Assembly (NCBI GenBank): GCA_030527285.1
Contig: JAUNBC010000004.1
Location: 5,781-69,780, forward strand
Length of the DNA: 64,000 bases
Direction of reading: 5' to 3'
Origin: Bacillota bacterium
Lineage (GTDB): Bacteria; Bacillota; Dehalobacteriia; UBA4068
The notes beneath the pieces were generated by a model. It worked only from the letters and a program-made list of their open reading frames with translations, had not been told where the DNA came from and made no database searches. This document shows positions 4,229-60,200 of the stretch, in pieces. Position 1 is the stretch's first letter; each line of letters begins with the position of its first letter. Position numbers and translations under genes: made by a program.

Positions 4229-4253
4229 TCTAAAGGGAGGAGGAGTTAATCAC

Positions 4254-13603: not shown

Positions 13604-14829
13604 TGGCGGAGCAAAAAGGATGGCGGCAGCGGATCTGGGATCCGCCCAAGTATTACGGCTACAAGATCAGCGCCGTGCTGTTGGCGCTTATGCTGTGGAT
13701 ATTCGTCACCGTGCCGCAGCCCTCGGCTGAGCAATTATATACGGTGCCTATCGAAATGCGTAATCTCAACAGCGAGCTGACGCTGACCGAGACGAATTAT
13801 CAGGCGCAGGTGCGCGTCAGCGGCAGCGCCGCCAGTATTGCCGCGCTGTCCTCGCGCTATATCGCGGCTTATGTCGATTTTACCGATGTGATGGCCGGCG
13901 AGGCTACGCTGGAAGTGCAATTGGAGCCGCTGCCGGATAACGTGCAGCTGATATCGGTATCGCCGACCTCGATCACCGTGACGCTGGAGGAAGTGGCCAG
14001 CCGTGATTATACGGTGGAGCCGCGTATCAGCGGCCAGCCGGATGAGAATTCGACGATACTCGACCCGGTGATCACGCCGTCTCTGGTCACGGTAGGCGGC
14101 GCGGAGGAGTATCTGTCGATCATCGGCTCGGTATTCGTGCATGCTGATATAGGCGGTATCACCACCAATTACAATCAGAATTTGGCGGTGGAGATCGAGG
14201 ATACGGAAGGCAATGATATAACGCAGCATTTCGTCATCAGTCCCAGCTCGGTGCAGGTTATGATACCGGTGATCTACGCGCAGCCGGAGAAGGCGCTGGC
14301 TGTTTCGGTACCGCTGACCGGCGAGACGGCGGAAGGCTATCAGGTATCGCGCGTGGTGGTGGAACCGGCGACGGTGCGCGCTTTCGGCGCGGTGGCGGCC
14401 TTGAACGCCCTCTATTATCTGGAAACAGAGCCGGTGGATATCAGCGGTCTTAGCGCTAATCATACGGTGACGGTGCGCGTATTGCCGCCTGCCGGTATCG
14501 AGGTGGATACCGCTACGGTGACGGTGGTGGTACAGGTGCAGGCTACGGCTACGCAGGAATACAGCAGCGTTATCGAATTGCTCAATGCCGATGAAACGCT
14601 CAGCTACAATCTCAGCGACAGCCAATGCGTGATCACGGTCAGCGGGCCGGCGGAGGAGATAGCGGCGCTGAATGAGGACGATATTCGCGTCTACGTTGAC
14701 GTCGCCGGTCTGGGCGAGGGCGAGCATCTGCTGACCGTGGAGGCGACGACGTCCGGCAATATCGAACTGCAACTGGCGGTACCGGCGCAGGTAACGCTGC
14801 TGATCGAGCAGCAGCCGGCAGGGGAATGA
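13603..14829 (+). CDS. cdaR: CdaA regulatory protein CdaR (YbbR-domain repeats)
   Basis: The ATG overlaps the cdaA TAA. N-terminal TM segment followed by repeated YbbR-like beta domains. Canonical position after cdaA. Confidence 0.85.
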   Translation: MAEQKGWRQRIWDPPKYYGYKISAVLLALMLWIFVTVPQPSAEQLYTVPIEMRNLNSELTLTETNYQAQVRVSGSAASIAALSSRYIAAYVDFTDVMAGEATLEVQLEPLPDNVQLISVSPTSITVTLEEVASRDYTVEPRISGQPDENSTILDPVITPSLVTVGGAEEYLSIIGSVFVHADIGGITTNYNQNLAVEIEDTEGNDITQHFVISPSSVQVMIPVIYAQPEKALAVSVPLTGETAEGYQVSRVVVEPATVRAFGAVAALNALYYLETEPVDISGLSANHTVTVRVLPPAGIEVDTATVTVVVQVQATATQEYSSVIELLNADETLSYNLSDSQCVITVSGPAEEIAALNEDDIRVYVDVAGLGEGEHLLTVEATTSGNIELQLAVPAQVTLLIEQQPAGE

Positions 14830-16403
14830 GCGCGGGCGCCGCTCGCGGCGGCCGGCTCAATGGCGTCAAGCTGCCGCTGTCCGCGATCAAGAACGCGGAG
14901 GAGGAGCGTGAGCTGCTGCGGCAGGCGGTGAGCAAAAAAGGCGGCGGCCGCGATTTTGTGATATTGAGAAAGTCCTTGGACGCCCGTGAACATGGGCGTT
15001 TGAGCTATGTGTATAATGTCGGCTGGGGCGCGGCGGCTCAGCCGCTTGCGCTGGCCGTGGGCAATAGCTGGCGCGGGCCGCAGCCGCTGATCGTCGGCGC
15101 GGGGCCGGCGGGGTTATTCGCCGCCTATGCGCTGGCGCTGGCCGGCGCGCGGCCGGTCGTGCTGGAGCAGGGGCGCGACGTGGAGCGCCGCGCGGAGGAC
15201 GTGCAGCGCTTCTGGCGAGATGGCGTTTTGGACGCCAGCAGCAATATCCAATTCGGCGAGGGCGGCGCGGGCGCTTTCTCCGACGGCAAGCTGACGGCGC
15301 GTAATCGTGATAAGCTGACCGCCCGCGTATTTGACGTTTTCATCGCTTGCGGCGCGGATCCGAGCATCGCCTATTGGCATAAGCCGCATCTCGGCTCGGA
15401 TCGCCTGCCGCTGATCGTTGCCAATCTGCGGCGGCAGATCATCGCCCAAGGCGGCGAATTCCGCTATCAGAGCAGGCTTACGGATATCGAGAGCGCCGGC
15501 GGGCGGCTATGCGCGATCAGCGTCAGCGACGGCGCAAGCGAACGGCAGCTGGAGGCGCAGACGCTGATACTCGCCACCGGCAACGGCGCGCGCGGCGTTT
15601 ACCGGATGCTGGCGCGGCGCGGAGTGGCTATGCAGGCCAAGGCCTTTGCCGTGGGATTGCGCATCGAGCAGGAGCAGGCGTTGATCGACGCGGCGCAATA
15701 CGGGAGCGAGGCCGGGCATCCGCTATTGGGCGCGGCTGATTATCAGCTCAGCTATCAGGATCACAGGCGGCGGCGCGGCTGCTATACCTTTTGCAATTGT
15801 CCGGGAGGTTATATCGTTAACGCCGCCAGCGCGCCGGACGGCGTACTGGTCAACGGCGTATCCGAGGCGGCGCGCGACAGCGGGCGCGCCAATGCCGCGG
15901 TGGTGGCGCAGGTCGTCCCGGGGCGCGAATTCGGTACGGGACCGCTGGACGGCCTCGACTATCAGCAGCGGCTGGAGCGCGCGGCCTTTGCCGCGGGCGG
16001 CGGCGGCCATGGCTTGCCGGTGCAGTCGGCGGCGGCCTTCTGCGGCGAGGCGGAGCAGGAGATCAGCGAACGCTTTCAGCCGCGCACGGCGGCGTGGCGG
16101 CGGGCGGAGCTGGCGGAAATACTGGGCGAGGATATCAGCGGCAGTATTGCCGACGCTTTGCGTCATTGGCAGCAGCAGCTGCGCGGTTTTTGCCAGGGGG
16201 CGGTGCTGGCGGCGGTAGAGAGCCGTACGTCGGCGCCGCTGCGTATCTTGCGCGGCGACGACCGGCAGGCGCTGAACCTGCGCGGGCTTTATCCGGCGGG
16301 CGAGGGCGCGGGCTATGCCGGCGGCATCATCAGCTCGGCCGCGGACGGTTTGAAAACGGCGCTGGCAGTCATAGAAGCTAAACGGCAGCATACATTAGGA
16401 TAA
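14826..16403 (+). CDS. FAD-dependent protein, COG2509-like (function unknown)
   Basis: The ATG overlaps the cdaR stop (ATGA). N-terminal SLDAR-containing domain, then dinucleotide fold LIVGAGPAGLFAAYALALAGARPVVLEQG. C-terminal LYPAGEGAGYAGGI motif. Confidence 0.75.
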   Translation: MSAGAARGGRLNGVKLPLSAIKNAEEERELLRQAVSKKGGGRDFVILRKSLDAREHGRLSYVYNVGWGAAAQPLALAVGNSWRGPQPLIVGAGPAGLFAAYALALAGARPVVLEQGRDVERRAEDVQRFWRDGVLDASSNIQFGEGGAGAFSDGKLTARNRDKLTARVFDVFIACGADPSIAYWHKPHLGSDRLPLIVANLRRQIIAQGGEFRYQSRLTDIESAGGRLCAISVSDGASERQLEAQTLILATGNGARGVYRMLARRGVAMQAKAFAVGLRIEQEQALIDAAQYGSEAGHPLLGAADYQLSYQDHRRRRGCYTFCNCPGGYIVNAASAPDGVLVNGVSEAARDSGRANAAVVAQVVPGREFGTGPLDGLDYQQRLERAAFAAGGGGHGLPVQSAAAFCGEAEQEISERFQPRTAAWRRAELAEILGEDISGSIADALRHWQQQLRGFCQGAVLAAVESRTSAPLRILRGDDRQALNLRGLYPAGEGAGYAGGIISSAADGLKTALAVIEAKRQHTLG

Positions 16404-19684: not shown

Positions 19685-21586
19685 TCAGCGGACTTTGGCG
19701 GCGATCTCCTGCTTGAGCAGGGCGATGATCTCGTCGAGCGGTTTGGCTCCCAGATCGCCCTCGCCGCGTTTGCGTACGGCGGCGGTTCCGCTCTCCATCT
19801 CCTTATCGCCTAATACCAGCATATACGGCGTTTTCTCATTCTGCGCGGCGCGTATCTTGTAGCCGATCTTCTCATTGCGGCTGTCGATCTCGCAGCGGAT
19901 GCCGGCGGCGGCGAGCTGCGCTGCTATCTGCCCGGCGTATTCGTCCTGCCGGTCGGTGATGGTCAGTATTTTGACCTGCACCGGCGACAGCCACAGCGGG
20001 AAAGCGCCGGCGAAATGCTCGGTGATCACGCCGATGAAGCGCTCGACGGAGCCGAAAACGACGCGGTGTATCATCACCGGGCAATGCTTGTCGCCGTCGG
20101 CGCCGGTGAATTCCAAATCAAAGCGGCCGGGCAGCTGGTAATCGAGCTGGATAGTGCCGCATTGCCAGGTGCGGCCAAGGCTGTCGAGGATATGGAAATC
20201 GAGCTTGGGGCCATAGAACGCGCCGTCGCCGGGGTTGACGGTATATTCTTTGCCCACGCTCTCGATCGCGTCGGACAGCGCCCGGGTGGCGATATCCCAG
20301 TCTTCGACCGAGCCGATATGATCTTCGGGCATCGTAGACAGCTCGATGGTATAGGGCAGGCCGAACAGGTTATATACCTCGTCAAACAGCTGGACGATGC
20401 GCACCACTTCGCCGGTGATCTGCTCCTTGGCTAACAGTATATGCGCGTCGTCCTGAGTGAAGCAGCGCACGCGGAACATCCCATGCAGCGCGCCGGACAG
20501 CTCATGCCGATGCACGCAGCCCAGCTCGCCGTAGCGCAGCGGCAATTCGCGGTAGGAATGAGGCTCCAACTCATAAACAAGGATGCTGCCGGGGCAGTTC
20601 ATCGGTTTGATCGCGAAATCCTCCCCGTCGATCAGCGTGGTATACATATTGTCCTTGTAATGCTCCCAGTGGCCGGAGGTTTCCCAAAGGCTGCGGCGCA
20701 TGATCTGCGGCGTGGAGATCTCCACGTAATCCCATTTTTTATGCACCTCGCGCCAGTAATCGATCAGCGTATTGCGCAGTACCATACCCTTGGGCAGGAA
20801 GAAGGGCATACCCGGCGCTTCGTCGCTGAAGGCGAACAGCGACAGCTCGCGCCCCAGCTTGCGATGGTCGCGGCGCTTGGCTTCCTCGAGGTTGAACAGG
20901 TATTCGTCGAGCTGCTCGCGCGTGGGGAAGGCGGTGGCATAGATGCGCTGCAGCATTTTCTTAGAGCTGTCGCCATGCCAATAGGCTCCGGCCACGCTCA
21001 TCAGCTTGAAAGCCTTGACCATACCGGTGGCCGGCAGATGCGGGCCGGCGCACAGATCGGTGAAATCGCCCTGCGTATACAGCGAGATCACCGCGTCAGC
21101 GGGCAGATTTTCGATCAGATCGACCTTGTAGATCTCGCCCTTATCGCCGAATAGCTTCAGCGCTTCCTCGCGCGAGACTTCACGGCGCTCGAATTTGAGA
21201 TTCTGCTTGACGATCTTCTTCATCTCGGCTTCGATGGCGGCCATATCCTCGTCGGTGAAGATGTGCTCGCTGTCCAGGTCATAGTAGAAGCCGTCCTTGA
21301 TCGCCGGACCGATGCCGAACTTGGTGTCGGGGAACAGATGCTGTATCGCCTGCGCCATGATATGCGAGGAGCTGTGGCGGAAAGTATGCGCGCCGTCCTC
21401 GTCGTCAAAGCCGATAAACTCCAGCTCATCGCCTTCAGCGGGAATGTAGGTAAGCTCGCGTATTTTGCCGTTGACGCGCACCGCCAGATACTGCTTGTAT
21501 TGCTCCGGCTCCAGCGCCTTGATCAACGCGGCCGCCGGCAACGCCTCGACCTGTTGCTGTCCGTGCTTGCTGATGCTGATATTCAT
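19685..21586 (-). CDS. thrS: threonine--tRNA ligase
   Basis: 633 aa. TGS domain, editing domain (HSSSH), class II core (HRKLGRELSLF, FRHSSSH), anticodon-binding domain. RBS AAGGAGG. Confidence 0.96.
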   Translation of the reverse strand: MNISISKHGQQQVEALPAAALIKALEPEQYKQYLAVRVNGKIRELTYIPAEGDELEFIGFDDEDGAHTFRHSSSHIMAQAIQHLFPDTKFGIGPAIKDGFYYDLDSEHIFTDEDMAAIEAEMKKIVKQNLKFERREVSREEALKLFGDKGEIYKVDLIENLPADAVISLYTQGDFTDLCAGPHLPATGMVKAFKLMSVAGAYWHGDSSKKMLQRIYATAFPTREQLDEYLFNLEEAKRRDHRKLGRELSLFAFSDEAPGMPFFLPKGMVLRNTLIDYWREVHKKWDYVEISTPQIMRRSLWETSGHWEHYKDNMYTTLIDGEDFAIKPMNCPGSILVYELEPHSYRELPLRYGELGCVHRHELSGALHGMFRVRCFTQDDAHILLAKEQITGEVVRIVQLFDEVYNLFGLPYTIELSTMPEDHIGSVEDWDIATRALSDAIESVGKEYTVNPGDGAFYGPKLDFHILDSLGRTWQCGTIQLDYQLPGRFDLEFTGADGDKHCPVMIHRVVFGSVERFIGVITEHFAGAFPLWLSPVQVKILTITDRQDEYAGQIAAQLAAAGIRCEIDSRNEKIGYKIRAAQNEKTPYMLVLGDKEMESGTAAVRKRGEGDLGAKPLDEIIALLKQEIAAKVR

Positions 21587-21847
21587 ATAGACCTCCTTGC
21601 TCCCGCCAGCGGCGGAAAAAAATAAGCCTCACCCCGACACGGGATGAAGCATGGCTCCACGGTTCCACCCGAATTATACCGCCTGCGGTATCGCTCGTAT
21701 GCTCTGACGCGGCTTCACGGCGGGGGTTCGCCCCCGCGCTCACCGGTGGTAAATAACGCTTATCCTGCCGCCTTCACAGCTGCCGGCGGCTCTCTTTGAG
21801 GCATCAGACGCTATCCATGTCCGGATCATCGCTTTATTATTGAATTA
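21587..21847 (-). promoter_or_regulatory. T-box riboswitch leader (threonine, ACC specifier) with intrinsic terminator
   Basis: Minus strand, 5' to 3': AGAGA bulge (complement of 21791-21795); candidate specifier ttt-ACC-ACC-gg (complement of 21745-21750); T-box sequence AATTCGGGTGGAACCGTGGAG (complement of about 21655-21677); terminator stem (21626-21650) followed by TTATTTTTTT. Confidence 0.85.
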
Positions 21848-49743: not shown

Positions 49744-50937
49744 ATGACAAAGAGCTTTGAAGAGATCAACGAAAAGATCCGCGCAGGCAAAGCGGTAGTA
49801 GTCACCGCCGAGGAAGTCATCGGTATTGCTAAAGATATCGGCATAAAGGAAGCGGCGAGAAAAGTTGACGTAGTAACAACGGGGACGTTCGGCATCATGT
49901 GCTCCTCCGGCGCTTTTCTTAATTTCTGGCATACCAAGCCCAAGATGAAGATGCAGCATATTTATCTGGACGGCGTACCGGCGGGCGGCGGCATGGCGGC
50001 GGTCGATTGCTATATCGGCGCTACCGCTATCCCCGAGAACGACCCGGCTAACTCGCATCATCCGGGGCATTTCCGTCATGGCGGCGGCCATGTGATCGAG
50101 GATCTGATCGCCGGCCGCGCGGTGGAATTGCGCGCTACGGCCTACGGCACCGATTGCTATCCGCGCCGCAGCCTGGAGCAGACGATCACCCTGGCTGATC
50201 TGCGGCAGGCGTATATCTTCTCGCCGCGCAACAGCTATCAGAATTATAATGCCGGCGTCAACTGCTCGGATAAAACTGTTTATACATATATGGGCATACT
50301 CAAGCCGCATATGGCAAACGTCCATTATTCCTCCGCCGGACAGCTATCGCCGCTGCTCAACGACCCCTATTATCGCACGCTGGGCATTGGCAGCCGCATC
50401 TTTCTCGGCGGCGGCGAGGGTTTCATCGCCTGGGAGGGCACGCAGCATGCGCCCGACGACCCGCGCGATCAACGCGGCCTGCCGCTGGGCGGCGCCGGTA
50501 CCATCGCGGTGATCGGCGATATGAAGCAGATGGACGCGCGCTTTGTGCGCGGCGTCAGCATCACCGGTTACGGCGTATCGATGATGACCGGCATCGGCGT
50601 ACCGATACCGATACTCGATGAGGAAATGCTCTATTACACTACCGTGACCGACGCTGACATCATGGCTCCGATCTGCGATTACGGTCCGGACGGTTATCCG
50701 ACCGGCGAGCCGTGCGTGCTCGGTCATGTCAGCTATGCCGAGCTGAAAAGCGGCGAGATCGACTTCATGGGCAAAAAGATCCGCACCGCACCGCTGTCCA
50801 GCTATGCCAAGGCCAGAGAGATCGCCGCTATGCTCAAGAGCTGGATCAGCGACGGCAAATTCCTGCTCGGGCAGCCTTCGCGTACCTTGCGCAGCGCCGC
50901 CGATTATCAGCCGGGAGGTGTTTTCGATGATAAATAA
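49744..50937 (+). CDS. homocysteine biosynthesis protein, COG1900/DUF39 family
   Basis: MTKSFEEINEKIRAGKAVVVTAEEV...VDVVTTGTFGIMCSSGAFLNF is typical of DUF39. RBS AGGAGG. Confidence 0.85.
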   Translation: MTKSFEEINEKIRAGKAVVVTAEEVIGIAKDIGIKEAARKVDVVTTGTFGIMCSSGAFLNFWHTKPKMKMQHIYLDGVPAGGGMAAVDCYIGATAIPENDPANSHHPGHFRHGGGHVIEDLIAGRAVELRATAYGTDCYPRRSLEQTITLADLRQAYIFSPRNSYQNYNAGVNCSDKTVYTYMGILKPHMANVHYSSAGQLSPLLNDPYYRTLGIGSRIFLGGGEGFIAWEGTQHAPDDPRDQRGLPLGGAGTIAVIGDMKQMDARFVRGVSITGYGVSMMTGIGVPIPILDEEMLYYTTVTDADIMAPICDYGPDGYPTGEPCVLGHVSYAELKSGEIDFMGKKIRTAPLSSYAKAREIAAMLKSWISDGKFLLGQPSRTLRSAADYQPGGVFDDK

Positions 50938-51349
50938 TCAACAAGTCACCAAAAATGTGATCCTGCGCTTTTCTCCCGACGTGGTCGACCGGCCGATAGT
51001 CTATGAGCTGGTTACCGAGTATCATCTGATACCGAATATCATCAAGGCCTCGGTCAATCCCGAGCGCGAGGGCTATATCGTGCTCGGCCTGACCGGCACC
51101 GAGGATAACTTTGAGCGCGGCGTGTTCTATATGCAAGGCCTCGGCATGGAGGTGCAGCTGTTGGCTGACCGTGTCAGCTGGGACGACAACATTTGTACCC
51201 AATGCGGCGCTTGCACCGCCGTTTGTCCCGCCGGCGCGCTGTCTTTGCGGCGGCCGGAAATGGAGCTGCATTTTGACAGCGAGAAATGTATTGTTTGTCA
51301 TATGTGTATCGAGGCGTGTCCTGTTAGTGCCGTACACTTAGATTTTTAG
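50927..51349 (+). CDS. NIL-domain / 2x[4Fe-4S] ferredoxin protein (partner of COG1900)
   Basis: Start MINNQQVTKNVILRF, 11-nt overlap with the upstream gene. NIL domain, then CTQCGACTAVCP and CIVCHMCIEACP. Confidence 0.8.
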   Translation: MINNQQVTKNVILRFSPDVVDRPIVYELVTEYHLIPNIIKASVNPEREGYIVLGLTGTEDNFERGVFYMQGLGMEVQLLADRVSWDDNICTQCGACTAVCPAGALSLRRPEMELHFDSEKCIVCHMCIEACPVSAVHLDF

Positions 51350-51356
51350 CGTTCTG

Positions 51357-51374
51357 ACAAAAATAAGCGGCGCA
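51357..51374 (+). repeat. 18-nt direct repeat, copy 1 (ACAAAAATAAGCGGCGCA)
   Basis: Identical to 51483-51500. Begins 8 nt after the NIL-ferredoxin stop codon. Confidence 0.9.
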
Positions 51375-51405
51375 TAAGTTCGTCACGGCTTCCGGCGGCT
51401 GCGTC

Positions 51406-51428
51406 GGCGTATGTTTTGATACGCCTTT
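51406..51428 (+). terminator. short hairpin with T-run between the two repeat copies
   Basis: GGCGTAT-gttttg-ATACGCC followed by TTT. Confidence 0.3.
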
Positions 51429-51482
51429 GCTCGCCGCTCTCGCCGTTCCTGCTTCTGCTTGCTTCTTTTTGCCAGACTTATA

Positions 51483-51500
51483 ACAAAAATAAGCGGCGCA
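51483..51500 (+). repeat. 18-nt direct repeat, copy 2 (ACAAAAATAAGCGGCGCA)
   Basis: Identical to 51357-51374. Ends 35 nt before the UPF0280 start codon. Confidence 0.9.
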
Positions 51501-51535
51501 CAGGCGCGGCAATACCGCTATTATCCGAGGTTTGT

Positions 51536-52273
51536 ATGCAAGAGGAAAGATTTTATCGCGCCGGGTACGGCGGCGATCTTGAAAGCTATCGTCTGACCAT
51601 CGGCGAGACTGATCTGGCGATCTGTGTGCCGGAAGGCGTTTGGCATGAGCATAGCGGCAAAAAGACGGCCGACTATATCACCAATCAGCGGCGCTTATTG
51701 CAGGAGTACATAGTGCGGCATCCCGAGTTCGCCTCAAGCCATACGCCGCTGCCCGTGGATAAGGGCGCGCCGGCGGTGGCGCGCATCATGATGGTCGCCG
51801 CTAACAAGGCCGGCGTTGGACCGATGGCGGCGGTGGCGGGTACCTTTGCGCTGCTGGCCGGCCGTCTGCTCAGTTATTACAGCGACAATGTGATCGTCGA
51901 GAACGGCGGTGATATTTACCTCAAGAGCAGCCGGCCGCGTACGGTCGGCGTATATGCCGGCGACAGCCCTTTTTCCGGGCTCGTCGGCGTCGTCGTGCCG
52001 GCGGGAAAAACGCCGTGCGGCGTTTGTACCAGCTCCGGCACGGTGGGCAGCTCTTTCAGCTATGGCGTGGCCGACGCGGCTTTGATCTTTGCCGCTGATG
52101 CGCCGTTGGCCGACGCGGTAGCCACCGCCGCCGCCAATCTTGTGCATCAGCCCGGGGACGTGGAGGCCGCCGCTGACTATGCGCTCGGTATCGAGGGCGT
52201 ATACGGCGCGGTGGTGATCTGCAAGGACAAGCTGGCGATCGCCGGCGAGCTGGAATTGGTCAAGACCGCCTGA
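51536..52273 (+). CDS. UPF0280 / COG2122 (ApbE-superfamily-like) protein
   Basis: Start MQEERFYRAG after GAGG. Family motifs GVGPMAAVAG, ENGGDIY, CTSSGTVG. Confidence 0.85.
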   Translation: MQEERFYRAGYGGDLESYRLTIGETDLAICVPEGVWHEHSGKKTADYITNQRRLLQEYIVRHPEFASSHTPLPVDKGAPAVARIMMVAANKAGVGPMAAVAGTFALLAGRLLSYYSDNVIVENGGDIYLKSSRPRTVGVYAGDSPFSGLVGVVVPAGKTPCGVCTSSGTVGSSFSYGVADAALIFAADAPLADAVATAAANLVHQPGDVEAAADYALGIEGVYGAVVICKDKLAIAGELELVKTA

Positions 52274-52383: not shown

Positions 52384-53136
52384 ATGTCAGGTCATTCCAA
52401 ATGGGCGAATATCAAAAGAAAAAAGGGCGCGAACGACGCGGAGCGCGGCAAGATCTTTACCAAGATCGCCAAGGAGATACAGGTGGCGGTGCGTGCCGGC
52501 GGCCCCGACCCGGACGGCAACTTCCGGCTCAAGATGTGCATACAAAAGGCCAAAGCCAATAATATGCCGGCCGATAATATCAACCGCTGCATACAGAAAG
52601 CGGCCGGAGCAGGCACGGACGGCGCGGCGATCGAGGAGTTCTTCTATGAGGGCTACGGCGCGGGCGGCGTAGCCGTGCTCTGCGATATGATGACCGATAA
52701 CCGCACCCGCGCGGCGGCGGAAATACGCTATCTGTTCTCGCGCAATAACGGCAATCTTGGCGAGAGCGGCTGCGTATCGTATATGTTCGAGCGCAAGGGC
52801 GAGATCGCGGTGGACGCCGCCGGTGTGGATGAGGATGAGCTGATGATGGCCGCCCTTGACGCGGGCGCCGAGGATATGAGCGTCGATGAGGAGCGAGCTA
52901 CCATCGTCACCGCACCCGGCGATGTGGAGGCGGTGCAGCAGGCGCTGAGCGAGGCCGGATTCACGGTGATCGAATCGCAGGTAGTGATGTCGCCGTCCAA
53001 TACTATCGAGATCACCGATCTGGAAACGGCGGAAAAGGTGATCAAGCTGATCTCGGCATTAGAGGATAACGACGACGTGCGCGAGGTCTACGCCAATTAC
53101 GATATCGCCGACGCGATCATCGAGCAAATGGAATAA
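52384..53136 (+). CDS. yebC: YebC/PmpR family DNA-binding transcriptional regulator
   Basis: MSGHSKWANIKRKKG... 250 aa. Confidence 0.93.
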   Translation: MSGHSKWANIKRKKGANDAERGKIFTKIAKEIQVAVRAGGPDPDGNFRLKMCIQKAKANNMPADNINRCIQKAAGAGTDGAAIEEFFYEGYGAGGVAVLCDMMTDNRTRAAAEIRYLFSRNNGNLGESGCVSYMFERKGEIAVDAAGVDEDELMMAALDAGAEDMSVDEERATIVTAPGDVEAVQQALSEAGFTVIESQVVMSPSNTIEITDLETAEKVIKLISALEDNDDVREVYANYDIADAIIEQME

Positions 53137-53158
53137 ACGGTTGATCGAGCCGCAATAC

Positions 53159-53188
53159 AAAGACCTTGCAAAGCAAGGTCTTTTTTTT
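53159..53188 (+). terminator. rho-independent terminator after yebC
   Basis: GACCTTGC-aaa-GCAAGGTC followed by T8. Confidence 0.85.
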
Positions 53189-53307
53189 GTATGCGGGAGC
53201 GGGCGGCGGCGGCCATTGCCCCATTAGCAGGAATAGCCGCAGATAGAGCGAATATACCGTTATGTTCCGCGTATTTCCGGCAATTTTGACGATAGGGGAA
53301 GCGACGC

Positions 53308-53883
53308 ATGGCCGTATTGCATAATGCGCTTGACCGTTTCAGCCTGCGCGATCTATTGCTGATCGCGGTGATGGCGGCGCTGGGCGTGGCCTTGAAACCG
53401 ATCATCGTGCCGTTGGCGCATCTGGTCAGCGCGCCGCTATTGATACCGGGCGGCGCTTTGGCCGGCGGTCTGTATATGATGTGGCTGGTGGTGGCGATGG
53501 GGCTGACGCAGAAGCGCGGTACGGCTACCCTGGTCGGATTAGTGCAGGCGCTGCTGGTGACCGTCACCGGCATTGTCGGCAGTCATGGGCTGATGAGCCT
53601 GTTCAGCTATACGTTGCCCGGCGTGATCCTGGACTTGCTGCTGCTGCTGATCGGGCATCGCGTCTGCTGCCGCTATTGCACGTTTATTGCCGGCATGGCA
53701 GCCAATATCGCCGGCGCGGTCTGCGTCAATCTGATCTTTTTCCGCCTGCCGCTGATACCGCTGCTGCTATCGCTGGCGGTGGCGGCTTTTTCCGGCGGCT
53801 TGGGCGGTTTGTTAGCTTGGGAGCTGCTGCAGGCGCTGAAAAAGTATCATATCGGCTTTCATGGCGGCGCGAAGCAAGAATAG
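53308..53883 (+). CDS. ECF-transporter S (substrate-capture) component-like membrane protein, specificity unknown
   Basis: 191 aa, about 6 hydrophobic helices, YkoE/ThiW-like layout. First gene of an operon with two EcfA-type ATPases and an EcfT. Confidence 0.65.
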   Translation: MAVLHNALDRFSLRDLLLIAVMAALGVALKPIIVPLAHLVSAPLLIPGGALAGGLYMMWLVVAMGLTQKRGTATLVGLVQALLVTVTGIVGSHGLMSLFSYTLPGVILDLLLLLIGHRVCCRYCTFIAGMAANIAGAVCVNLIFFRLPLIPLLLSLAVAAFSGGLGGLLAWELLQALKKYHIGFHGGAKQE

Positions 53884-53906
53884 CGTCTGATATAAGGGAG
53901 TTTGCG

Positions 53907-54410
53907 GTGAAAACAAAGCGTATCTGGGCGATAATGATATTCTTAGCGGCGGCGATCGCGGTTCTGGCGCTGCTCAACCGGCCTGCCGTCGATACCGACG
54001 CCGAGGTGCTGTCGCTGGTGGCGGAGGGACAGGTGCTGCGCGTCTATACCTACGGCGAGCTGAAAGAGCTGCCCTGCGTCGAGGTGGAGAAGGAGATACG
54101 CTCCGCCGGCTTCAAAAGCAAGGAAGGCTTGTGGCGCGGCGTGCCGCTGCGCACGATCTTTGCCGACGCCGGTATCGACCTTAGCTCCTATAAGCAGGTG
54201 GTGACGCGCGCCGACGATAGCTTTGTTTCCGCCTTCAGCGTCGAGGAGGTGTTGGCGGATGATAATATCTTCATCGCCTACAGCTTCAACGGCCATGATA
54301 TAGGCGGCCAGGAGGATGGCGGCGACGGGCCGCTGCGCATCGTTATCAGCAAGGATATCTTCGGCACGCGCTCCACACGCTGGCTGTATCAGTTGGAGCT
54401 GCAGCGATGA
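53907..54410 (+). CDS. membrane-anchored exported protein with sulfite-oxidase/YedY-type molybdopterin-binding-domain signature (167 aa)
   Basis: GTG start 6 nt after AAGGGAG. Signal-anchor IWAIMIFLAAAIAVLALL. Domain pattern LKELPCVEVE...WRGVPLRTIFADAG...IFIAYSFNGHDI...DGPLRIVISKDIFGTRSTRWLYQLEL parallels the Oxidored_molyb consensus. Confidence 0.6.
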   Translation: MKTKRIWAIMIFLAAAIAVLALLNRPAVDTDAEVLSLVAEGQVLRVYTYGELKELPCVEVEKEIRSAGFKSKEGLWRGVPLRTIFADAGIDLSSYKQVVTRADDSFVSAFSVEEVLADDNIFIAYSFNGHDIGGQEDGGDGPLRIVISKDIFGTRSTRWLYQLELQR

Positions 54411-55177
54411 CGGCGGAACGCGAGCGCCTGCTGTCCGTTGCAGGGCTGAGCTTTGCCTATCAGCCCGAACGGCTGCTGCTGGATAATATCAGCTTTGAGC
54501 TGTCAGGCGGGCAGCTGCTGGTGCTGGCCGGTCTTTCCGGCAGCGGCAAGACCACTTTAGCGCATATACTGACCGGCATCATTCCCGCCTGCATCGCCGG
54601 GGAGCCAAGCGGCAGCGTGCGCGTGTGCGGCGAGGATATCGCCGGCAAAAAACCGGCGCAGCTGGCCGAGCGGATCGCGCTGGTGTTTCAGGACAGCGAC
54701 GCGCAGCTGATCGCCGCCACCGTTGAGGGCGAGTTGGCCTTCGGTCTGGAAAACCTCTGCGTCGCGCCGGCGGAGATACGCGAGCGGGTTGACCGCCAGC
54801 TGGCCGGTCTGGGTTTTACCGGTTTGGCCGAGCGCCATCCCGACAGCCTGTCCGGCGGGCAGAAAAAGCTGCTGGCGCTGGGCGCGGTGCTGATTTTGGA
54901 GCCGCGCGTGATCATCTTCGACGAGCCGTTCGCGCATTTGGACGAGCAGGGGCGGGAGCTGGTCAAGCGGGCGCTGATGGCCTTGCGCGAGCAGGGGCGG
55001 GGACTGCTGCTGATCGAGCATGATCTGTCGCTGGTAGATTATGCCGATAGCTGGCTGATATTGCATGAGGGGCGTATCGTGGCCGAGGATAGCCCGGCGG
55101 CCTTGCTGGAGCAGCGCGAGCGGCTGCGCGCATGGCAGCTTTGGTACGACGAGGACGACGGCGGGGAGCTGCGATGA
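54407..55177 (+). CDS. ECF/ABC transporter ATPase (dedicated module, A)
   Basis: ATGA overlap with the upstream gene. Walker A GLSGSGKTT, signature LSGGQKK, Walker B IIFDEP. Confidence 0.88.
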   Translation: MTAERERLLSVAGLSFAYQPERLLLDNISFELSGGQLLVLAGLSGSGKTTLAHILTGIIPACIAGEPSGSVRVCGEDIAGKKPAQLAERIALVFQDSDAQLIAATVEGELAFGLENLCVAPAEIRERVDRQLAGLGFTGLAERHPDSLSGGQKKLLALGAVLILEPRVIIFDEPFAHLDEQGRELVKRALMALREQGRGLLLIEHDLSLVDYADSWLILHEGRIVAEDSPAALLEQRERLRAWQLWYDEDDGGELR

Positions 55178-55809
55178 TCGAGATAGATAATATCAATTTC
55201 AGTTATCCGCGCGCCCAGCAGCCGGTTTTCACCGCTTTTTCATTATGCGTGGAAAAGGGCGGCGTGACCGCGCTCAGCGGGCCGAACGGCTGCGGTAAAA
55301 CGACATTGGCGCGGCTGATCGTCGGTTTGCTGCGCCCTTCGGCGGGGCGTATCGTCATCGACGGTACGGATATCGCGCCGCTCAATTTGTTTGAGATCGG
55401 GCAGCGCGCCGGCTATTTATTCCAAAACCCCAACCGTCAGCTGTTCAATACCTCGGTCTATGAGGAGATCGCCGTCGGCCTGCGTAATCGCGGGCTGGCC
55501 GCGGACGTTGTCGAGCGGCGGGTTGCCGAGCTGCTGGAGGATTTTTATCTCACCGCTTATCGCGACGTTTTTCCGCTGCAATTATCGCTGGGCGAGCGTC
55601 AGCGCGTGGCTTTGGCCGCGGTGCTGGCTTTGGACAGCGATTATCTGCTGCTCGACGAGCCGACCTGCGGCTTGGATATGCGTTGCCGGCGGCAGCTGGG
55701 CGAATTGCTGCTTGACCTTTGCGCGCGCCGGCAGCGGGGGCTGCTCGTGATCAGCCATGAGCGGAGCTTCATTCGCCGCTACTGCGATAGAGAGCTGGTG
55801 CTCGGATGA
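55174..55809 (+). CDS. ECF/ABC transporter ATPase (dedicated module, A')
   Basis: Start MIEIDNINFSYP, ATGA overlap. GPNGCGKTT, LSLGERQR, LLLDEP. Confidence 0.88.
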   Translation: MIEIDNINFSYPRAQQPVFTAFSLCVEKGGVTALSGPNGCGKTTLARLIVGLLRPSAGRIVIDGTDIAPLNLFEIGQRAGYLFQNPNRQLFNTSVYEEIAVGLRNRGLAADVVERRVAELLEDFYLTAYRDVFPLQLSLGERQRVALAAVLALDSDYLLLDEPTCGLDMRCRRQLGELLLDLCARRQRGLLVISHERSFIRRYCDRELVLG

Positions 55810-56540
55810 ACCTCTACCGGCGCGATGCGCGGCTGAAGCTGCTGATGCTGCTGATGATATCGGGAACGGCGATGTTCGTCGCCCGTCCGCCGCAATTGCT
55901 GGCGCTGCTGGGCTTGACGCTGCTGATACTGCTATGCGGGCGCGTCGATCCGCGGCAGACATGGCGGCAGGCACGCCGCATACTCGGCCTGCTGCTGATG
56001 CTGTTCATACTGCAATGTTTGTTCAATCGCGGCGGCGAGCCGCTGCTGGCTGCCGGCGATCTCACGCTCGTCACCAGCGAGGGTTTGCGGCTGTCCACCG
56101 TGGTCAGCCTGCGTTTGCTGATCGTGGTGCTGACGGCGCTGATCGTGCTGAACGGCCGCACCGACGATTATCTGCTGGCCTTCACCCAATGCCATATGCC
56201 GTATGAGCTGGCGTTCATGTTGATGGCGGCGCTGCGCTTCCTGCCGCTGCTGCGCGAGGAGGCGCTGGACATATACGCGGCCACGCAAATGCGCGGCGTG
56301 GATATCGCGGGCGCGCGCCTTGGGCAAAAGCTGCGCCTGTACCTGAATATGTGCCTGCCGGTGGTGGCGGGCGCGATACGCCGCAGCGAAGAGATGTCGT
56401 TGGCCATGGAGGCGCGCTGCTTCCGCATTTTGCCGCAGCGCACCGCCCTGCGCCGCCTGCGTTTTGACCGCGCCGACCGGTGGTGGCTGGCGGCCTTTTT
56501 TCTCGCTTATGCCGGGATAATCATTGCCTTCGCCGCTTGA
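55806..56540 (+). CDS. ECF transporter T component (CbiQ family), dedicated module
   Basis: ATGA overlap. Multi-TM protein with coupling motifs YAATQMRGVD and SLAMEARCF. Confidence 0.85.
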   Translation: MNLYRRDARLKLLMLLMISGTAMFVARPPQLLALLGLTLLILLCGRVDPRQTWRQARRILGLLLMLFILQCLFNRGGEPLLAAGDLTLVTSEGLRLSTVVSLRLLIVVLTALIVLNGRTDDYLLAFTQCHMPYELAFMLMAALRFLPLLREEALDIYAATQMRGVDIAGARLGQKLRLYLNMCLPVVAGAIRRSEEMSLAMEARCFRILPQRTALRRLRFDRADRWWLAAFFLAYAGIIIAFAA

Positions 56541-56565
56541 CAAGGGGCGGGCATACTATTATACT
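56537..56565 (+). promoter_or_regulatory. candidate internal sigma-A promoter for yqeC-yqeB-xdhC-selD
   Basis: TTGACA (56537-56542, overlapping the ecfT stop), 17 nt, TATACT (56560-56565). Confidence 0.5.
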
Positions 56566-56591: not shown

Positions 56592-57308
56592 ATGTTGCTG
56601 TCCGAGGCTTTGCAAATACCCAACGGCATAACGGCGGTGGTGGGCGGCGGTGGTAAAACCAGTCTGATCGACGCTTTGGCGCGGGAGTTATCCGCGCGGG
56701 GCAAGGTGCTGATCTATACCACCACGCATATCATGCGTCCGCGCGAGCATTTGACGATGATCGAGCCGCTGCCGGCGCATATACGCGCGGCCTTTGCTCA
56801 ACAGCAGGTGATAGTGGCGGGCATGGAGTGTGCGGACGGGCGGCTGGGCGCTTTCCCGCCTTTGGAGCGCCATCTGAGCTCGCTCGCCGATTACGTGCTG
56901 GTCGAGGCTGACGGAGCCAAGCGTTTGCCGGTCAAAGCGCCGGCCGCGCATGAGCCGGTATTGCCGGCCGATACCAGGCTGGTGATCGCCGTGGCCGGAC
57001 TGGACGCGCTGGGGCGGCGCATCGCCGATGCGGCCTTTCGCGCGCCCCTGTACGCGAGCCTGCTGCGTAAGAGTATAGACTCGGTGATAACCGCGGATGA
57101 TATAGCCACGGTATTGATGCATCCTCAGGGACAGATGAAAAACGTCAAATGCGCCGCGGCCTACGTGCTGAACAAGGCCGATGATCAACAAAGGCAGACG
57201 GCGGCGGCCGTGATCGCCGCGCGGCTGGACGCGCCGGCAGCGGTCACGGTATTGGCCGGGCAGCCGCGGTTGATCAGCTTGTGGAGGGATAGTAAATGCT
57301 TGTTTTGA
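56592..57308 (+). CDS. yqeC: selenium-dependent hydroxylase accessory protein YqeC
   Basis: ITAVVGGGGKTSLIDALAREL P-loop-like N-terminus, about 238 aa. Synteny with yqeB and selD. Confidence 0.8.
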   Translation: MLLSEALQIPNGITAVVGGGGKTSLIDALARELSARGKVLIYTTTHIMRPREHLTMIEPLPAHIRAAFAQQQVIVAGMECADGRLGAFPPLERHLSSLADYVLVEADGAKRLPVKAPAAHEPVLPADTRLVIAVAGLDALGRRIADAAFRAPLYASLLRKSIDSVITADDIATVLMHPQGQMKNVKCAAAYVLNKADDQQRQTAAAVIAARLDAPAAVTVLAGQPRLISLWRDSKCLF

Positions 57309-58096
57309 TCAAGGGAGCCGGCGATCTGGCCAGCGGCGTAGCCGTGCGGCTGCATCGCGCCGGTTATGATATCGTGATGACCGATCTGCCGCGGCCGACG
57401 GCGATACGCCGCAGCGTCGCCTTTTGCGAGGCGATTATCGACGGCAGCGCCGAGCTGGAAGGCATACGCGCCGTGCTGGCGGCGGACAGCGGCGAGGCGC
57501 GGGCTATCGTCGCGCGCGGCGAGATAGCGGTGCTGGCCGACGCCGAGGCGCTCTGCGTCGACGGGCTTGCGCCGCAGGTCGTGGTCGATGCGATATTAGC
57601 CAAACATAATCTCGGCACCTCGATCAAGGACGCGCCGCTGGTGATCGGCCTCGGCCCCGGTTTTTACGCGGGCCGTGATTGCCACGCGGTGATCGAGACG
57701 ATGCGCGGCCATGATCTGGGGCGGGTGATATGGGACGGCGCGGCTGCCGCCAATACCGGCGTACCCGGGGAGATCGCGGGCTATGCCGCCGAGCGCCTGC
57801 TGCGCACGCCGCAGTCCGGCGTATTCCGTGAGCTGGCGCGTATCGGCGATATCGTGGAGGCCGGCGCGGTGGTGGCGGAGGTGGACGGCCAGCCGGTGCG
57901 GGCGAATATCGGCGGCGTATTGCGCGGGCTGCTGCGCAGCGGCGTCAGCGTAACGGCGAACATGAAATGCGGCGACGTGGATCCGCGCGGCCGCGTTGAA
58001 TACTGTCGCAGCGTTTCCGATAAGGCGCGCGCCATCGGCGGCGGCGTGCTGGAGGCGATATTATATTTTCAAAGGAGCGGTAAAAATGAAGGATAA
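57296..58096 (+). CDS. yqeB: selenium-dependent molybdenum hydroxylase system protein, YqeB (EF2563) family
   Basis: MLVLIKGAGDLASGVAVRLHRAGYDIVMTDLPRPTAIRRSVAFCEAIIDG matches my recollection of the family N-terminus. 13-nt overlap with yqeC. Confidence 0.8.
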   Translation: MLVLIKGAGDLASGVAVRLHRAGYDIVMTDLPRPTAIRRSVAFCEAIIDGSAELEGIRAVLAADSGEARAIVARGEIAVLADAEALCVDGLAPQVVVDAILAKHNLGTSIKDAPLVIGLGPGFYAGRDCHAVIETMRGHDLGRVIWDGAAAANTGVPGEIAGYAAERLLRTPQSGVFRELARIGDIVEAGAVVAEVDGQPVRANIGGVLRGLLRSGVSVTANMKCGDVDPRGRVEYCRSVSDKARAIGGGVLEAILYFQRSGKNEG

Positions 58097-59093
58097 GGTT
58101 TTAGCGGCGGTGGCGGCGGAATTGCGCGCCGGAGGAGCCGGGTATCTATATACGCTGATCGACGGCGAGTATGCCGGCAGTAAAGCTTATTTCGGCGCTG
58201 CGCGGGTATGCAATAACGACGACCTGCTGCCTTTGTTCGAACAGCTGCGGCAAAGCCGTCCGCAGCCGGACGGCGTGATCGACAGCGTCGCCGGTCATGT
58301 CTTTTGCGAGCGCATCCAACCGCGTCCGCGCTTATGTATTTGCGGCGGCGGGCATGTATCGCTGCCCCTGGCGCAGATCGCCGATATGCTCGGCTTTGCC
58401 GTGACGGTGCTCGACGACCGCGAGGAATTCGCCAATGCGCGGCGCTTCCCGCAGGCGGAGCTGTATTGCGGCGATTTCGTCAGCGGCTTGCAAGCCTTCG
58501 GCGGCGGGAGCAATGATTATTTCGTCATTATCACCTCCGGCCATCTCCATGACCGCGCCTGTTTGGAGCAGATATTGCGCGGTAAATATGCTTATGTGGG
58601 GATGATCGGCTCCAGACCCAAGCGCAAGGCGGTATATGAGCAAATGCTGGCGCAGGGCTTTACGCAGGCGCAGTTAGATACCGTGCATTCGCCGATCGGC
58701 CTGAATATCGGCGCGGAAACTCCGGCGGAGATAGCGGTGTGCATCGCCGCCGAGATCATCGAGGTCAAATCGCGCATCGGCGGAGTCGGCTGGGAGCCGG
58801 CGCTGCTCGAGGCGCTGCAAGCGCAGCAGAAGCCGGCGGCGTTGGTGGTGATCGTCGATCAGCGCGGCTCCTCGCCGCGCGGCGTGGGCGCGCGTATGCT
58901 GGTGCGCGCCGACGGCAGCATTGCCGGCACTGTGGGCGGCGGCAGCTCCGAGGCCGAGGCGATACGCGCGGCGGTCAAGATCGCGGACGCGGGCGGCAGC
59001 GGCGTGTTCCATTGCGATATGACCAATACCTCGGCCGTGGAGCAGGGGATGGTATGCGGCGGGACGATCGACGTATTTATCGAGGCAATATGA
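58086..59093 (+). CDS. xdhC: XdhC/CoxI family molybdenum-cofactor insertion/maturation protein
   Basis: Start MKDKVLAAV, 11-nt overlap with yqeB. Rossmann segment LCICGGGHVSLPLAQIADMLGFAVTVLDDR. Canonical XdhC_CoxI motifs (GSSPRGVGARMLV...GTVGGGSSE...MVCGGTIDVFIE) at the C-terminus. Confidence 0.8.
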   Translation: MKDKVLAAVAAELRAGGAGYLYTLIDGEYAGSKAYFGAARVCNNDDLLPLFEQLRQSRPQPDGVIDSVAGHVFCERIQPRPRLCICGGGHVSLPLAQIADMLGFAVTVLDDREEFANARRFPQAELYCGDFVSGLQAFGGGSNDYFVIITSGHLHDRACLEQILRGKYAYVGMIGSRPKRKAVYEQMLAQGFTQAQLDTVHSPIGLNIGAETPAEIAVCIAAEIIEVKSRIGGVGWEPALLEALQAQQKPAALVVIVDQRGSSPRGVGARMLVRADGSIAGTVGGGSSEAEAIRAAVKIADAGGSGVFHCDMTNTSAVEQGMVCGGTIDVFIEAI

Positions 59094-59144: not shown

Positions 59145-60200
59145 ATGGCCGTTGACCAGGATCACCGAGAGCAGATCAAGCTGACTTCATTAGCCTCCTG
59201 CTCTGGCTGAGGAGCGAAAGTCGGCGCAGGCGCGCTGGCGCAATTATTGGAGGGCATCAGGGTACGCTATGATGAAAACCTGCTCGTCGGCTTCGATAAG
59301 TCCGACGACGCCTCGGTGTATAAGCTCAATGATGAATTAGCCATTGTGCAGACGGTGGACTTTTTCCCGCCGATCGCCGACGATCCCTATCTGTTCGGCC
59401 AGATCGCCGCGGCCAACGCATTATCGGACGTTTACGCGATGGGCGGCGAGCCCAAGCTGGCGCTGAACCTGCTGTGCTTCCCTGAGGACTTGCCGCGGCA
59501 TATCGTGCATGAGATCTTGCGCGGCGGCTATGACAAGGCCTATGAGGCCGGCGTGATCATTACCGGCGGGCACAGCATCTTTGACCCCGAGCCAAAATAC
59601 GGTCTGTGCGTGACCGGCTTCGTGCATCCGCAAAAGCTGCTGACCAACAGCGGCGCCAAGGCAGGCGACGTGCTGTATCTGACCAAGCGGCTGGGCATCG
59701 GCGTGATGACTACCGCCAACAAGGCGGGCCTGCTGTCGGCGGCGGGGCTGGAGACGGCGATGACGCAGATGGCGACGCTGAACAAGGCGGCGCGTGACGT
59801 GCTGGTCAAATACCGCGTCCACGCCGTCACCGACGTTACCGGCTTCTCGCTGCTCGGTCACGCTTTGGAGATGGCCGCCGGCAGCAAGGCGGCGATCGAG
59901 ATCGACACGGCGGCGGTGGATATCATCCCCGAGGCGCTGGAGCACGCGGCGGCGGGGCTGCTGCCGGGCGGTATGTACCGCAACCGCGATTTTGCCGAGG
60001 CGCAGGTCGAGGCCGGAGACGTGGGGCAGCTGCTTTGCGACATGCTCTATGATCCGCAGACCTCGGGCGGGCTGCTGATTGCCGTGGACGCGGGCGACGC
60101 CGACGCGATGGGAGCGGAATTAGCGGGCGCGGTCCCGTCGGCGCAGCGTATCGGGCGGGTGATCGAGTATAACGGCGGCAAGCGGGTATTCCTCAAGTAA
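59145..60200 (+). CDS. selD: selenide, water dikinase (selenophosphate synthetase) with in-frame UGA selenocysteine at codon 22
   Basis: ATG 59145, 7 nt after AAGGGGGA. MAVDQDHREQIKLTSLASCSG-U-GAKVGAGALAQLLEGIRVRYDENLLVGFD... restores the SelD glycine-rich active-site loop. The only in-frame stop before 60198 is TGA 59208-59210. The track ORF starts artificially at TTG 59247. Confidence 0.9.
59208..59210 (+). other. UGA selenocysteine recoding codon in selD
   Basis: The TGA aligns with the catalytic Cys/Sec position (G-[CU]-G-x-K) of SelD. The reading frame is continuous across it. Confidence 0.8.
59224..59241 (+). promoter_or_regulatory. candidate SECIS-like GC-rich hairpin downstream of the UGA
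   Basis: Imperfect palindrome GCGCAGGCGCGCTGGCGC beginning 14 nt after the UGA. Not folded computationally. Confidence 0.25.

Follow-up and report, generated by a model that had tools for sequence, protein, structure and literature searches.

A five-gene unit at positions 53308-56540 of a 64,000-nucleotide stretch of DNA from a Bacillota bacterium (contig JAUNBC010000004.1; the whole stretch is referred to as the window) encodes a dedicated energy-coupling factor (ECF) transporter that consists of an S component, a small exported protein (EXP), two ATPases (A and A') and a T component. The unit is proposed to be an importer belonging to the regulon of the molybdenum and tungsten (Mo/W) cofactors and to take up, most likely, a molybdopterin-type pterin, a reading which has about an even chance of being correct. 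That the operon family represents the first bacterial uptake system identified for molybdopterin, the molybdenum cofactor (Moco) or any unconjugated pterin is a bolder proposition whose chances fall somewhat short of even. We infer the identity of the substrate, the direction of transport and the hand-over from EXP to S.

A dedicated ECF transporter with an additional exported subunit

All five genes are located on the forward strand in the order S-EXP-A-A'-T, as the original prediction had described from the sequence alone. The S component (53308-53883, 191 aa) matches PF09819 (52 bits) and has a YkoE-like fold, forming a distinct family. It is followed by EXP (53907-54410, 167 aa), an exported protein that is membrane-anchored at its N-terminus and matches PF00174 (48 bits). 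ATPase A (54407-55177, 256 aa) and ATPase A' (55174-55809, 211 aa) match PF00005 with 89 and 105 bits and the ECF ATPase model TIGR04520 (ECF_ATPase_1) with 190 and 173 bits, respectively. The T component (55806-56540, 244 aa) matches PF02361 (CbiQ, 99.5 bits). The predicted ATGA start/stop overlaps can be read directly in the sequence at 54407 (EXP/A), 55174 (A/A') and 55806 (A'/T). The ECF architecture and the translational coupling of the unit are thus established. Translation of EXP starts at a GTG codon which is preceded by the ribosome-binding site AAGGGAG 7 nt upstream; a longer open reading frame (ORF) from 53481 overlaps S and was rejected as an over-extension.

ECF ATPase models are the best NCBIfam matches for both A and A', yet the scores lie under the equivalog cut-offs. 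The T component carries two Ala-x-x-x-Arg coupling motifs, AATQMRG and AMEARCF, which are apparent from its sequence. A membrane protein with S fold, a T component with two coupling motifs and operon-borne A and A' ATPases are all present, and the unit is therefore a group I (dedicated module) ECF transporter by every class feature that was examined. The S-EXP-A-A'-T order is seen again in dozens of unrelated genomes, showing that it is not a chance arrangement. The earlier view, that of a dedicated ECF importer of unrecognised specificity to which an uncommon additional exported subunit belongs, is supported.

The upstream boundary of the unit is formed by the intrinsic terminator of yebC (52384-53136, forward strand, assigned with Pfam and NCBIfam), the gene that precedes S and ends with its stop codon at 53136. 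The terminator, also predicted originally, was found as a hairpin with an 11-bp stem followed by a T-run at 53159-53183 on the forward strand. No sigma-70-like promoter was found by promoter scan between this terminator and S. At the opposite end, a promoter-like site on the forward strand (56537-56565, TTGACA-17-TATACT, 11 of 12 consensus matches) overlaps the stop codon of T and precedes yqeC. It is probably the downstream boundary of the unit, and because of its position before yqeC the five-gene transporter is probably a transcription unit of its own. There is no terminator between T and yqeC, so read-through into yqeC would be possible.

To follow EXP across genomes, loci were sampled by means of S alone, which gave 267 species hits, of which 80 loci with 10-kb flanks were analysed (designated L; P entries stem from the exhaustive search described below). 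Locus frequencies are based on tblastn and cluster counts, since a crude ORF caller lost S in 12 high-GC loci. A homologue of EXP is encoded near S in 67 of the 80 loci (84%; tblastn), mostly directly before ATPase A, and among the 13 loci without such a hit at least two (L077, L078) encode a fusion of S and EXP with an extra transmembrane helix in between. Further fusions of S with PF00174 occur in P0243, P0246, P0257 and cluster c23. Carriers of EXP belong to the Bacillota and also to the Thermoleophilia. Zhenpiania hominis, Clostridium ragsdalei and Alkaliphilus peptidifermentans are cultured carriers of the system. Judged by its presence beside S and its fusion to S elsewhere, EXP is a conserved subunit of the ECF system; the original prediction had hinged on the exported protein not being absent from orthologous operons, and it is retained in most of them.

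Moco/Tuco riboswitches upstream of orthologous operons

On sequence evidence the operon family is tied to the Mo/W-cofactor regulon, and this link is provided by riboswitches in orthologues and not by the window itself. Of the 80 loci, 20 have the riboswitch RF01055, which responds to Moco or the tungsten cofactor (Tuco), upstream of the orthologous operon in the same orientation. Fourteen of these riboswitches were confirmed by Rfam with 52-88 bits compared to a gathering score of 36, and six come from our own covariance model only (61-92 bits). The Rfam scan covered 30 orthologous loci. The covariance model (R2) was rebuilt from 20 hits and its new hits were checked with Rfam; the earlier two-sequence model (R1) had missed the riboswitches of the closest relatives. 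The Rfam-verified set includes the closest relative (L004), whose S is 77% identical to the S of the window, as well as L054, in which the aptamer ends 84 nt before S. The P3 hairpin of RF01055, which is used to separate Mo-type from W-type switches (PMC11725836), is present in L004 and L054 and absent from L045 and L074 according to the Rfam alignments. Since P3-containing (Moco-type) and P3-less (Tuco-type) forms both occur, the orthologous operon is placed under both kinds of switch.

Upstream of S in the window no Rfam family reaches the threshold, either in a gathering scan of the whole window or in a permissive scan of 53100-53400, and our own Moco covariance models find no riboswitch there, in line with the initial impression that none was evident. 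The conserved polar and aromatic residues of S are identical in loci with and without a riboswitch, for which reason the Mo/W assignment may be carried over to the window. An additional RF01055 beside the ECF operon was observed in three loci: before an ORF of 1169 aa in L083 (14626-14744), before a TupABC-like transporter in L055 (18652-18775, reverse strand), and in L054 (20472-20561), where it is cut by the end of the contig.

The S component represents a small family distinct from YkoE

The AlphaFold2 (AF2) model of S has a predicted local distance difference test (pLDDT) score of 92. Its best Foldseek match is YkoE (5EDL; template modelling (TM) score 0.76, 17% identity), followed by BioY, RibU and ThiT, which are all ECF S components. 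At the sequence level S has no NCBIfam match and no match to YkoE at E<=10, neither with phmmer nor with a 30-sequence family profile searched against the PDB including 5EDL; it could indeed not be placed in any characterised specificity class. Word-index searching gives more than 635 homologues of S. An exhaustive profile search of 1.84 billion cluster representatives gives only 402 clusters (50% identity) at E<=1e-3 and 80 at E<=1e-30, which indicates that the family is small and sharply bounded. Members share 50-77% identity in S and, judged from these searches, are distinct from the bulk of PF09819.

Essentially invariant in the family are the polar and aromatic residues K30, H38, Y56, W59, Q80, H93, Y101, D109, N133, N141 and S162. 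Such an aromatic and amide-rich set would be typical of sites for planar heterocycles. YkoE contacts thiamine through Y46, W49, E77, Q95 and D131 (PMC5037267), and the invariant Y56-x-x-W59 of S has the same spacing as Y46/W49, a resemblance that covers two of the five contacts. A candidate metal site formed by H117, C121 and C124, which are near-invariant in close homologues, was rejected because these residues are missing in the riboswitch-controlled orthologue L054.

EXP resembles the pterin-binding protein PruR

At its N-terminus EXP possesses a single hydrophobic helix, which spans residues 3-29 according to hydropathy and 3-23 according to the AF2 model and is followed by only about 140 residues. 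Its N-terminus (MKTKRIWAIMIF...) contains neither a twin-arginine motif nor a lipobox. N24, with which the helix ends, hardly varies across the family alignment, which argues that the helix is kept as an anchor and is not cleaved. The AF2 model of EXP (pLDDT 92) adopts a minimal sulfite oxidase (SUOX) fold. In Foldseek searches it matches SorA, chicken sulfite oxidase and YedY with E-values of 2e-7 to 1e-5 and a query-normalised TM score of about 0.65. Equally good scores were obtained for the PruR structures 7kom, 7kos, 7rkb (with neopterin) and 7kp2 (target-normalised TM score 0.67-0.75), for which the coverage of the target is much better than for the SUOX enzymes. When the EXP family profile is compared with the PDB, PruR 7kos is the top match (E 1.7e-4), ahead of SorA. 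In this alignment the invariant D104-G-Y106 of EXP corresponds to N-D-Y of PruR, of which N102 and Y104 hydrogen-bond to and stack on the pterin (PMC11194511). The equivalent of PruR W160 lies outside the aligned stretch.

Alignments of 40 and 46 EXP sequences show conservation of D104-G-Y106, G138-G139-x-G141-P142 and D150; the sole cysteine of EXP, C57, is not conserved in them. Accessory families with PF00174-like domains likewise have no conserved cysteine besides those of lipoboxes. EXP therefore lacks the conserved Mo-ligand cysteine that defines a SUOX enzyme, resembling non-enzymatic pterin binders instead, and is very unlikely to be an enzyme itself. A role as a true extracellular molybdoenzyme was rejected in view of the absence of both a conserved cysteine and a twin-arginine translocation (Tat) motif, and EXP is presumed to be the substrate-capture subunit. 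In public databases (NCBI, JGI) members of this family of about 170 aa are named 'molybdopterin-dependent oxidoreductase', 'sulfite oxidase and related enzymes' or 'YedYZ catalytic subunit' (P0001, P0130, P0137, P0166, P0217 and others). As the family has neither the Mo-ligand cysteine nor the Tat signal, these enzyme names are probably wrong.

Cofactor genes and accessory proteins of the operon family

Orthologous operons are recurrently accompanied by Mo/W-cofactor genes. A gene for MobB with an iron-sulfur (FeS) domain (TIGR00176, above cut-off) directly follows T in 26 loci; YqeC, whose gene follows T in the window, shows only P-loop similarity to this protein in BLASTP and is not claimed as its counterpart. 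Directly downstream of the Dethiobacter operon (L039) come modA, modB, modC, a mog-like gene, mobA and moeA, and in Clostridium ragsdalei (L084) moeA is part of the same cluster. A metagenomic protein (P0381) combines a MobA-like nucleotidyltransferase domain, S and PF00174 in one polypeptide. In L055 a TupABC-like transporter with its own riboswitch adjoins the ECF operon. Four loci without EXP (Pelotomaculum and related loci) encode an EF2568-type cysteine desulfurase (TIGR01977, 508 bits), a selenium/sulfur-carrier protein and a TsaA-like protein just before S.

Fuller operons typically comprise, in this order, a riboswitch, an FMN_bind lipoprotein, a lipoprotein with two PF00174 domains, S, an exported protein of 500 aa, EXP, A, A', T, MobB and a kinase-like protein. 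The operon of Alkaliphilus peptidifermentans (L045) is one of the fuller versions and has the NPP-like, MobB and kinase genes. Exported enzymes of the alkaline phosphatase superfamily that resemble nucleotide pyrophosphatases (NPP-like) are encoded in 33 loci, and the NPP-like domain is fused to S in P0241, P0248 and P0254 (PF01663, 43-64 bits). In 16 loci T is fused to an exported calcineurin-like phosphoesterase (Metallophos). A cytoplasmic APH/RIO-like kinase is found in 18 loci and the FMN_bind lipoprotein in 13, and several operons encode large surface proteins and lipoproteins with a PF00174-like domain devoid of cysteines.

A proposed working model of pterin salvage

It is proposed that EXP, tethered by its N-terminal helix to the outer face of the membrane, captures the substrate and passes it to S, which would dock on the T/A/A' module so that ATP can drive the substrate inward. 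As substrate, the pterin moiety of the cofactor is considered most likely, be it molybdopterin, Moco/Tuco or a precursor or breakdown product that is stable. For the fuller operons it is suggested that exported NPP-like enzymes and calcineurin-like phosphoesterases may first strip nucleotide or phosphate from dinucleotide forms, and SUOX-like lipoproteins and surface proteins may relay the ligand inward, as NEAT domains do with haem. Inside the cell, the cofactor would be restored by MobB, MobA, MoeA and the kinase-like protein. Salvage of phosphorylated or dinucleotide cofactors such as thiamine, flavins and NAD commonly follows this scheme, in which the compound is hydrolysed outside the cell, taken up and re-activated in the cytoplasm. 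The combination of outer hydrolases, an importer and an inner kinase with MobA and MobB would fit the cleavage of molybdopterin guanine or cytosine dinucleotide (MGD/MCD) to a molybdopterin form that is imported and rebuilt. The window contains the minimal five-gene version directly before yqeC-yqeB-xdhC-selD, whose products would use the cofactor.

Arguments against a pterin importer and alternative explanations

A number of points weigh against pterin import. Moco is labile, and we know of no bacterial Moco or pterin importer that could serve as a precedent. The window encodes MoaC (4733-5221, forward strand; TIGR00581, 214 bits), from which it follows that the organism probably makes the cofactor itself and that salvage would be supplementary. 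The operon in the window has no riboswitch, so its Mo link has been carried over from orthologues with 50-77% identity in S, and it is a minimal form without NPP-like, MobB and kinase genes. None of the 80 sampled loci has yqeB, yqeC or selD beside the operon, and the P0381 fusion is a singleton metagenomic gene call on a 2.6-kb contig. The binding cleft of PruR has been described as too short for Moco (PMC11194511). Finally, RF01055 also precedes transporters of Eubacterium limosum that were read as iron transporters (PMC11725836), which means that riboswitch control does not fix the substrate.

The main rival, which is rather unlikely, is an importer of molybdate, tungstate or a thio-oxyanion in which EXP would act as the extracytoplasmic oxyanion binder, making the unit an ECF counterpart of the ATP-binding cassette (ABC) transporters ModABC, TupABC and WtpABC. 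Molybdate and tungstate transporters are the classical targets of Moco/Tuco riboswitches, the neighbouring moeA, mobA and mobB genes suit a supply of metal equally well as one of pterin, and the known ECF systems with extra subunits (CbiMN, NikMN(K/L)) are all metal transporters. However, ModABC (L039) and a riboswitch-led TupABC-like system (L055) adjoin the ECF operon, so that an oxyanion route is already there, which argues against the ECF system being simply another oxyanion pump; it is probably not redundant with these transporters. Oxyanion uptake would also leave the exported NPP-like and Metallophos enzymes, some of them fused to S or T, and the kinase-like protein without a role. The fold and D-G-Y motif of EXP match a pterin site and no known oxyanion-binding fold, the conserved residues of S, being aromatic and amide-rich, look suited to a planar heterocycle, and a single orthologous family is found behind both Mo-type and W-type switches. 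A further alternative is an ordinary YkoE-type importer of hydroxymethylpyrimidine (HMP) or thiamine into which a PF00174 gene had been inserted by chance; S belongs to PF09819, the Pfam family of YkoE, which is also its best structural match, and one JGI annotation names a homologue thiamin/HMP permease. This explanation is effectively refuted. S does not match YkoE in sequence even by family profile and is 17% identical to it in the structural alignment, the thiamine pyrophosphate riboswitch (RF00059, THI-box) is absent from the window and from the 30 loci scanned with Rfam, where Moco riboswitches are found instead, and EXP is conserved in 84% of the loci and fused to S in others. The original prediction had named membership of S in a family of known substrate with a THI-box as the outcome that would speak against it, and neither part was observed.

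It is improbable that the unit imports some other nutrient required by Mo, W or Se enzymes, such as an iron chelate, haem or a selenium or sulfur compound, and that its Mo link is indirect. Such a role would account for FecCD/Peripla_BP_2 ABC genes and a DUF364 protein within the riboswitch-controlled operon of some loci, for the Tuco riboswitches before putative iron transporters in E. limosum (PMC11725836) and for the Shr-like haem-interacting domains of a protein encoded in the C. ragsdalei locus, and selenium would be suggested by selD, yqeB and yqeC in the window and by the selenium/sulfur carrier and EF2568-type desulfurase in four loci. Against this, a pterin site is what the fold and motif of EXP indicate, the neighbours related to Se act in Moco maturation in the cytoplasm, with yqeB, yqeC and selD found in none of the 80 loci, and the Cys/His motif of S (H117, C121, C124), a conceivable soft-metal site, is missing in the riboswitch-controlled L054. 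Transport in the outward direction is decidedly improbable; here the system would export Moco or a pterin, or take part in maturation, and load SUOX-fold proteins that are exported by the general secretory (Sec) pathway. There is a precedent for outward ECF-dependent cofactor trafficking in Listeria, where FAD is exported for extracytosolic flavinylation by RibU with FmnA/EetB (PMC9973259), and RF01055 is also found before genes of cofactor-using enzymes (PMC11725836). Extracytoplasmic redox chemistry is suggested by the several exported PF00174-like proteins that many operons specify and by the FMN_bind lipoprotein of 13 loci, and as none of these proteins has a Tat signal in its sequence any cofactor would need to be supplied outside the cell. 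However, no PF00174-like family keeps the Mo-ligating cysteine, making catalytic molybdoenzymes unlikely, and in the window version EXP is the sole exported protein that could be a client. Inward salvage accounts better for the combination of exported pyrophosphatases with a cytoplasmic kinase, MobA and MobB, and an importer of a molybdopterin-type pterin remains the preferred interpretation.

Genomic context and further observations

Downstream of the transporter, and not part of it, the forward strand of the window encodes yqeC (56592-57308; TIGR03172, 194 bits), yqeB (57296-58096; TIGR03309, 358 bits), an xdhC-like maturation factor (58086-59093; NF045664, 307 bits) and selD (59145-60200; TIGR00476, 364 bits). 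These neighbours fit the theme of the Mo cofactor. As candidate conserved partners of the transporter, however, the genes of this Se-dependent molybdenum hydroxylase system were rejected, as YqeC, YqeB, XdhC and SelD were found by tblastn in 0, 0, 2 and 0 of the 80 loci, and the Mo link of the transporter consequently rests on other evidence. The gene-neighbourhood analysis suggested at the outset thus bore out the conservation of EXP but not that of yqeC, yqeB and selD. The selD gene itself encodes a selenoprotein: the sequence MAVDQ...SLASCSG-UGA-GAKVGAG contains the SelD active-site motif with selenocysteine encoded by an in-frame UGA at 59208-59210, and the start at 59247 given in the ORF list is too late.

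At its beginning the window contains a housekeeping (group II type) ECF module with ecfA2 (1176-2024) and ecfT (2017-2823) on the forward strand, followed by three unannotated ORFs (2823-4649) and moaC. The organism therefore possesses a shared ECF module besides the dedicated one and at least part of the de novo pathway of Moco synthesis. Upstream of yebC, the region 49744-52273 (forward strand) encodes HcyBio (PF01837, 506 bits), a sulfur-incorporating enzyme of homocysteine biosynthesis, a protein with NIL and 4Fe-4S ferredoxin domains and a UPF0280 (PRK04334) protein. A T-box leader (RF00230, 95 bits) is found at 21637-21838 on the reverse strand, upstream of an ORF of 633 aa (19685-21586, reverse strand).

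Among the orthologous loci, riboswitch-controlled ECF operons were seen to include a FecCD permease, a Peripla_BP_2 protein and an ABC ATPase (L044, L046 and L062, between the riboswitch and S; L032, 6590-7342), and in the same group of loci a DUF364/DUF4213 'heavy-metal chelation' protein and a TiaS-TCKD-like protein. The FecCD-type transporter of the Tuco regulon has been called an iron transporter (PMC11725836), and its true substrate may deserve a second look. About 15 of the 80 loci, all from Gram-positive-type bacteria, encode a MotA/ExbB-like and a DUF2149 protein within or beside the ECF operon. In C. ragsdalei (L084, 6269-9406 and 15801-17708) this pair is accompanied by a large Big_2 surface protein and by another protein that carries two Shr-like haem-interacting domains, a neighbourhood that hints at an energised apparatus for capture at the cell surface. 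A Lachnospiraceae metagenome-assembled genome (L059) carries two tandem ROOL RNAs (RF03087, 258 and 219 bits; 14313-15525, reverse strand) some 1 kb downstream of its ECF operon.

Significance

Moco passes from bacteria to nematodes and its precursor, cyclic pyranopterin monophosphate (cPMP), is used as a drug. To our knowledge no bacterial transporter of molybdopterin or Moco is known, and a literature search also gave none. The literature on ECF transporters in combination with molybdopterin, the Moco riboswitch or PF09819 contained no prior description of the system, and according to a 2026 review (PMC13259868) it is not known how pterins pass the membranes of bacteria. If the proposed function is true, anaerobic communities would share Mo/W cofactors in the same way as they share B12. 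A dedicated bacterial uptake machine would open the study of Mo/W-cofactor cross-feeding in gut and methanogenic communities, extend the ECF transporters by one specificity class and one kind of accessory subunit, both new, and give the PruR-type 'degenerate SUOX' fold a second function in biology. The widespread annotation of EXP as a 'molybdopterin-dependent oxidoreductase' would be corrected, the catalytic cysteine being absent.

Comparison with known systems

Like the unit in the window, the thiamine/HMP transporter YkoEDC of Bacillus subtilis is a dedicated system whose S (YkoE, 5EDL), A, A' and T components are encoded together, and the two share the S fold and PF09819. Unlike YkoEDC, the unit includes an extra exported subunit and has no THI-box, its orthologues are controlled by Moco/Tuco riboswitches, and the two S components share 17% identity. 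An additional membrane or exported subunit encoded beside S is also characteristic of CbiMNQO, NikMNQO and the Nik(MN)QO systems with NikK/NikL. The subunits CbiM, NikM, CbiN, NikN, NikK and NikL are however unrelated to PF00174 and PF09819 and serve the transport of Co2+ and Ni2+, and neither S nor EXP has a Pfam match to CbiM/NikM or CbiN.

EXP shares its Moco-binding fold with the SUOX molybdoenzymes (SorA, chicken sulfite oxidase, YedY/MsrP) but lacks a conserved Mo-ligand cysteine, a Tat signal, a dimerisation domain and a haem domain. PruR of Agrobacterium and other Proteobacteria is, like EXP, a small secreted SUOX-fold domain without cysteine. It is the signalling partner of the diguanylate cyclase DcpA and is encoded in a bicistron with dcpA, whereas EXP is encoded between S and the ECF ATPases. 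EXP also does not contain the Pro-Trp motif of PruR and has three extra residues at this position, where the truncated hairpin of PruR is located (7kos alignment). Without this motif and the dcpA partner, EXP does not qualify as a PruR orthologue on sequence comparison. The fuller operons further invite an analogy, and an analogy only, with the Isd/NEAT haem relay in that surface proteins, lipoproteins and a membrane-proximal protein all carry one type of binding domain; fold, ligand and transporter class are all different. One defining feature each of YkoE transporters, Cbi/Nik systems, SUOX enzymes and PruR-DcpA modules was looked for and found to be absent, and the unit is none of these. 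It is best described as a variant of the ECF transporters that combines a new S family, a new type of accessory subunit in the form of a PruR-like SUOX-fold capture protein, and a new regulon, that of the Moco/Tuco riboswitches.

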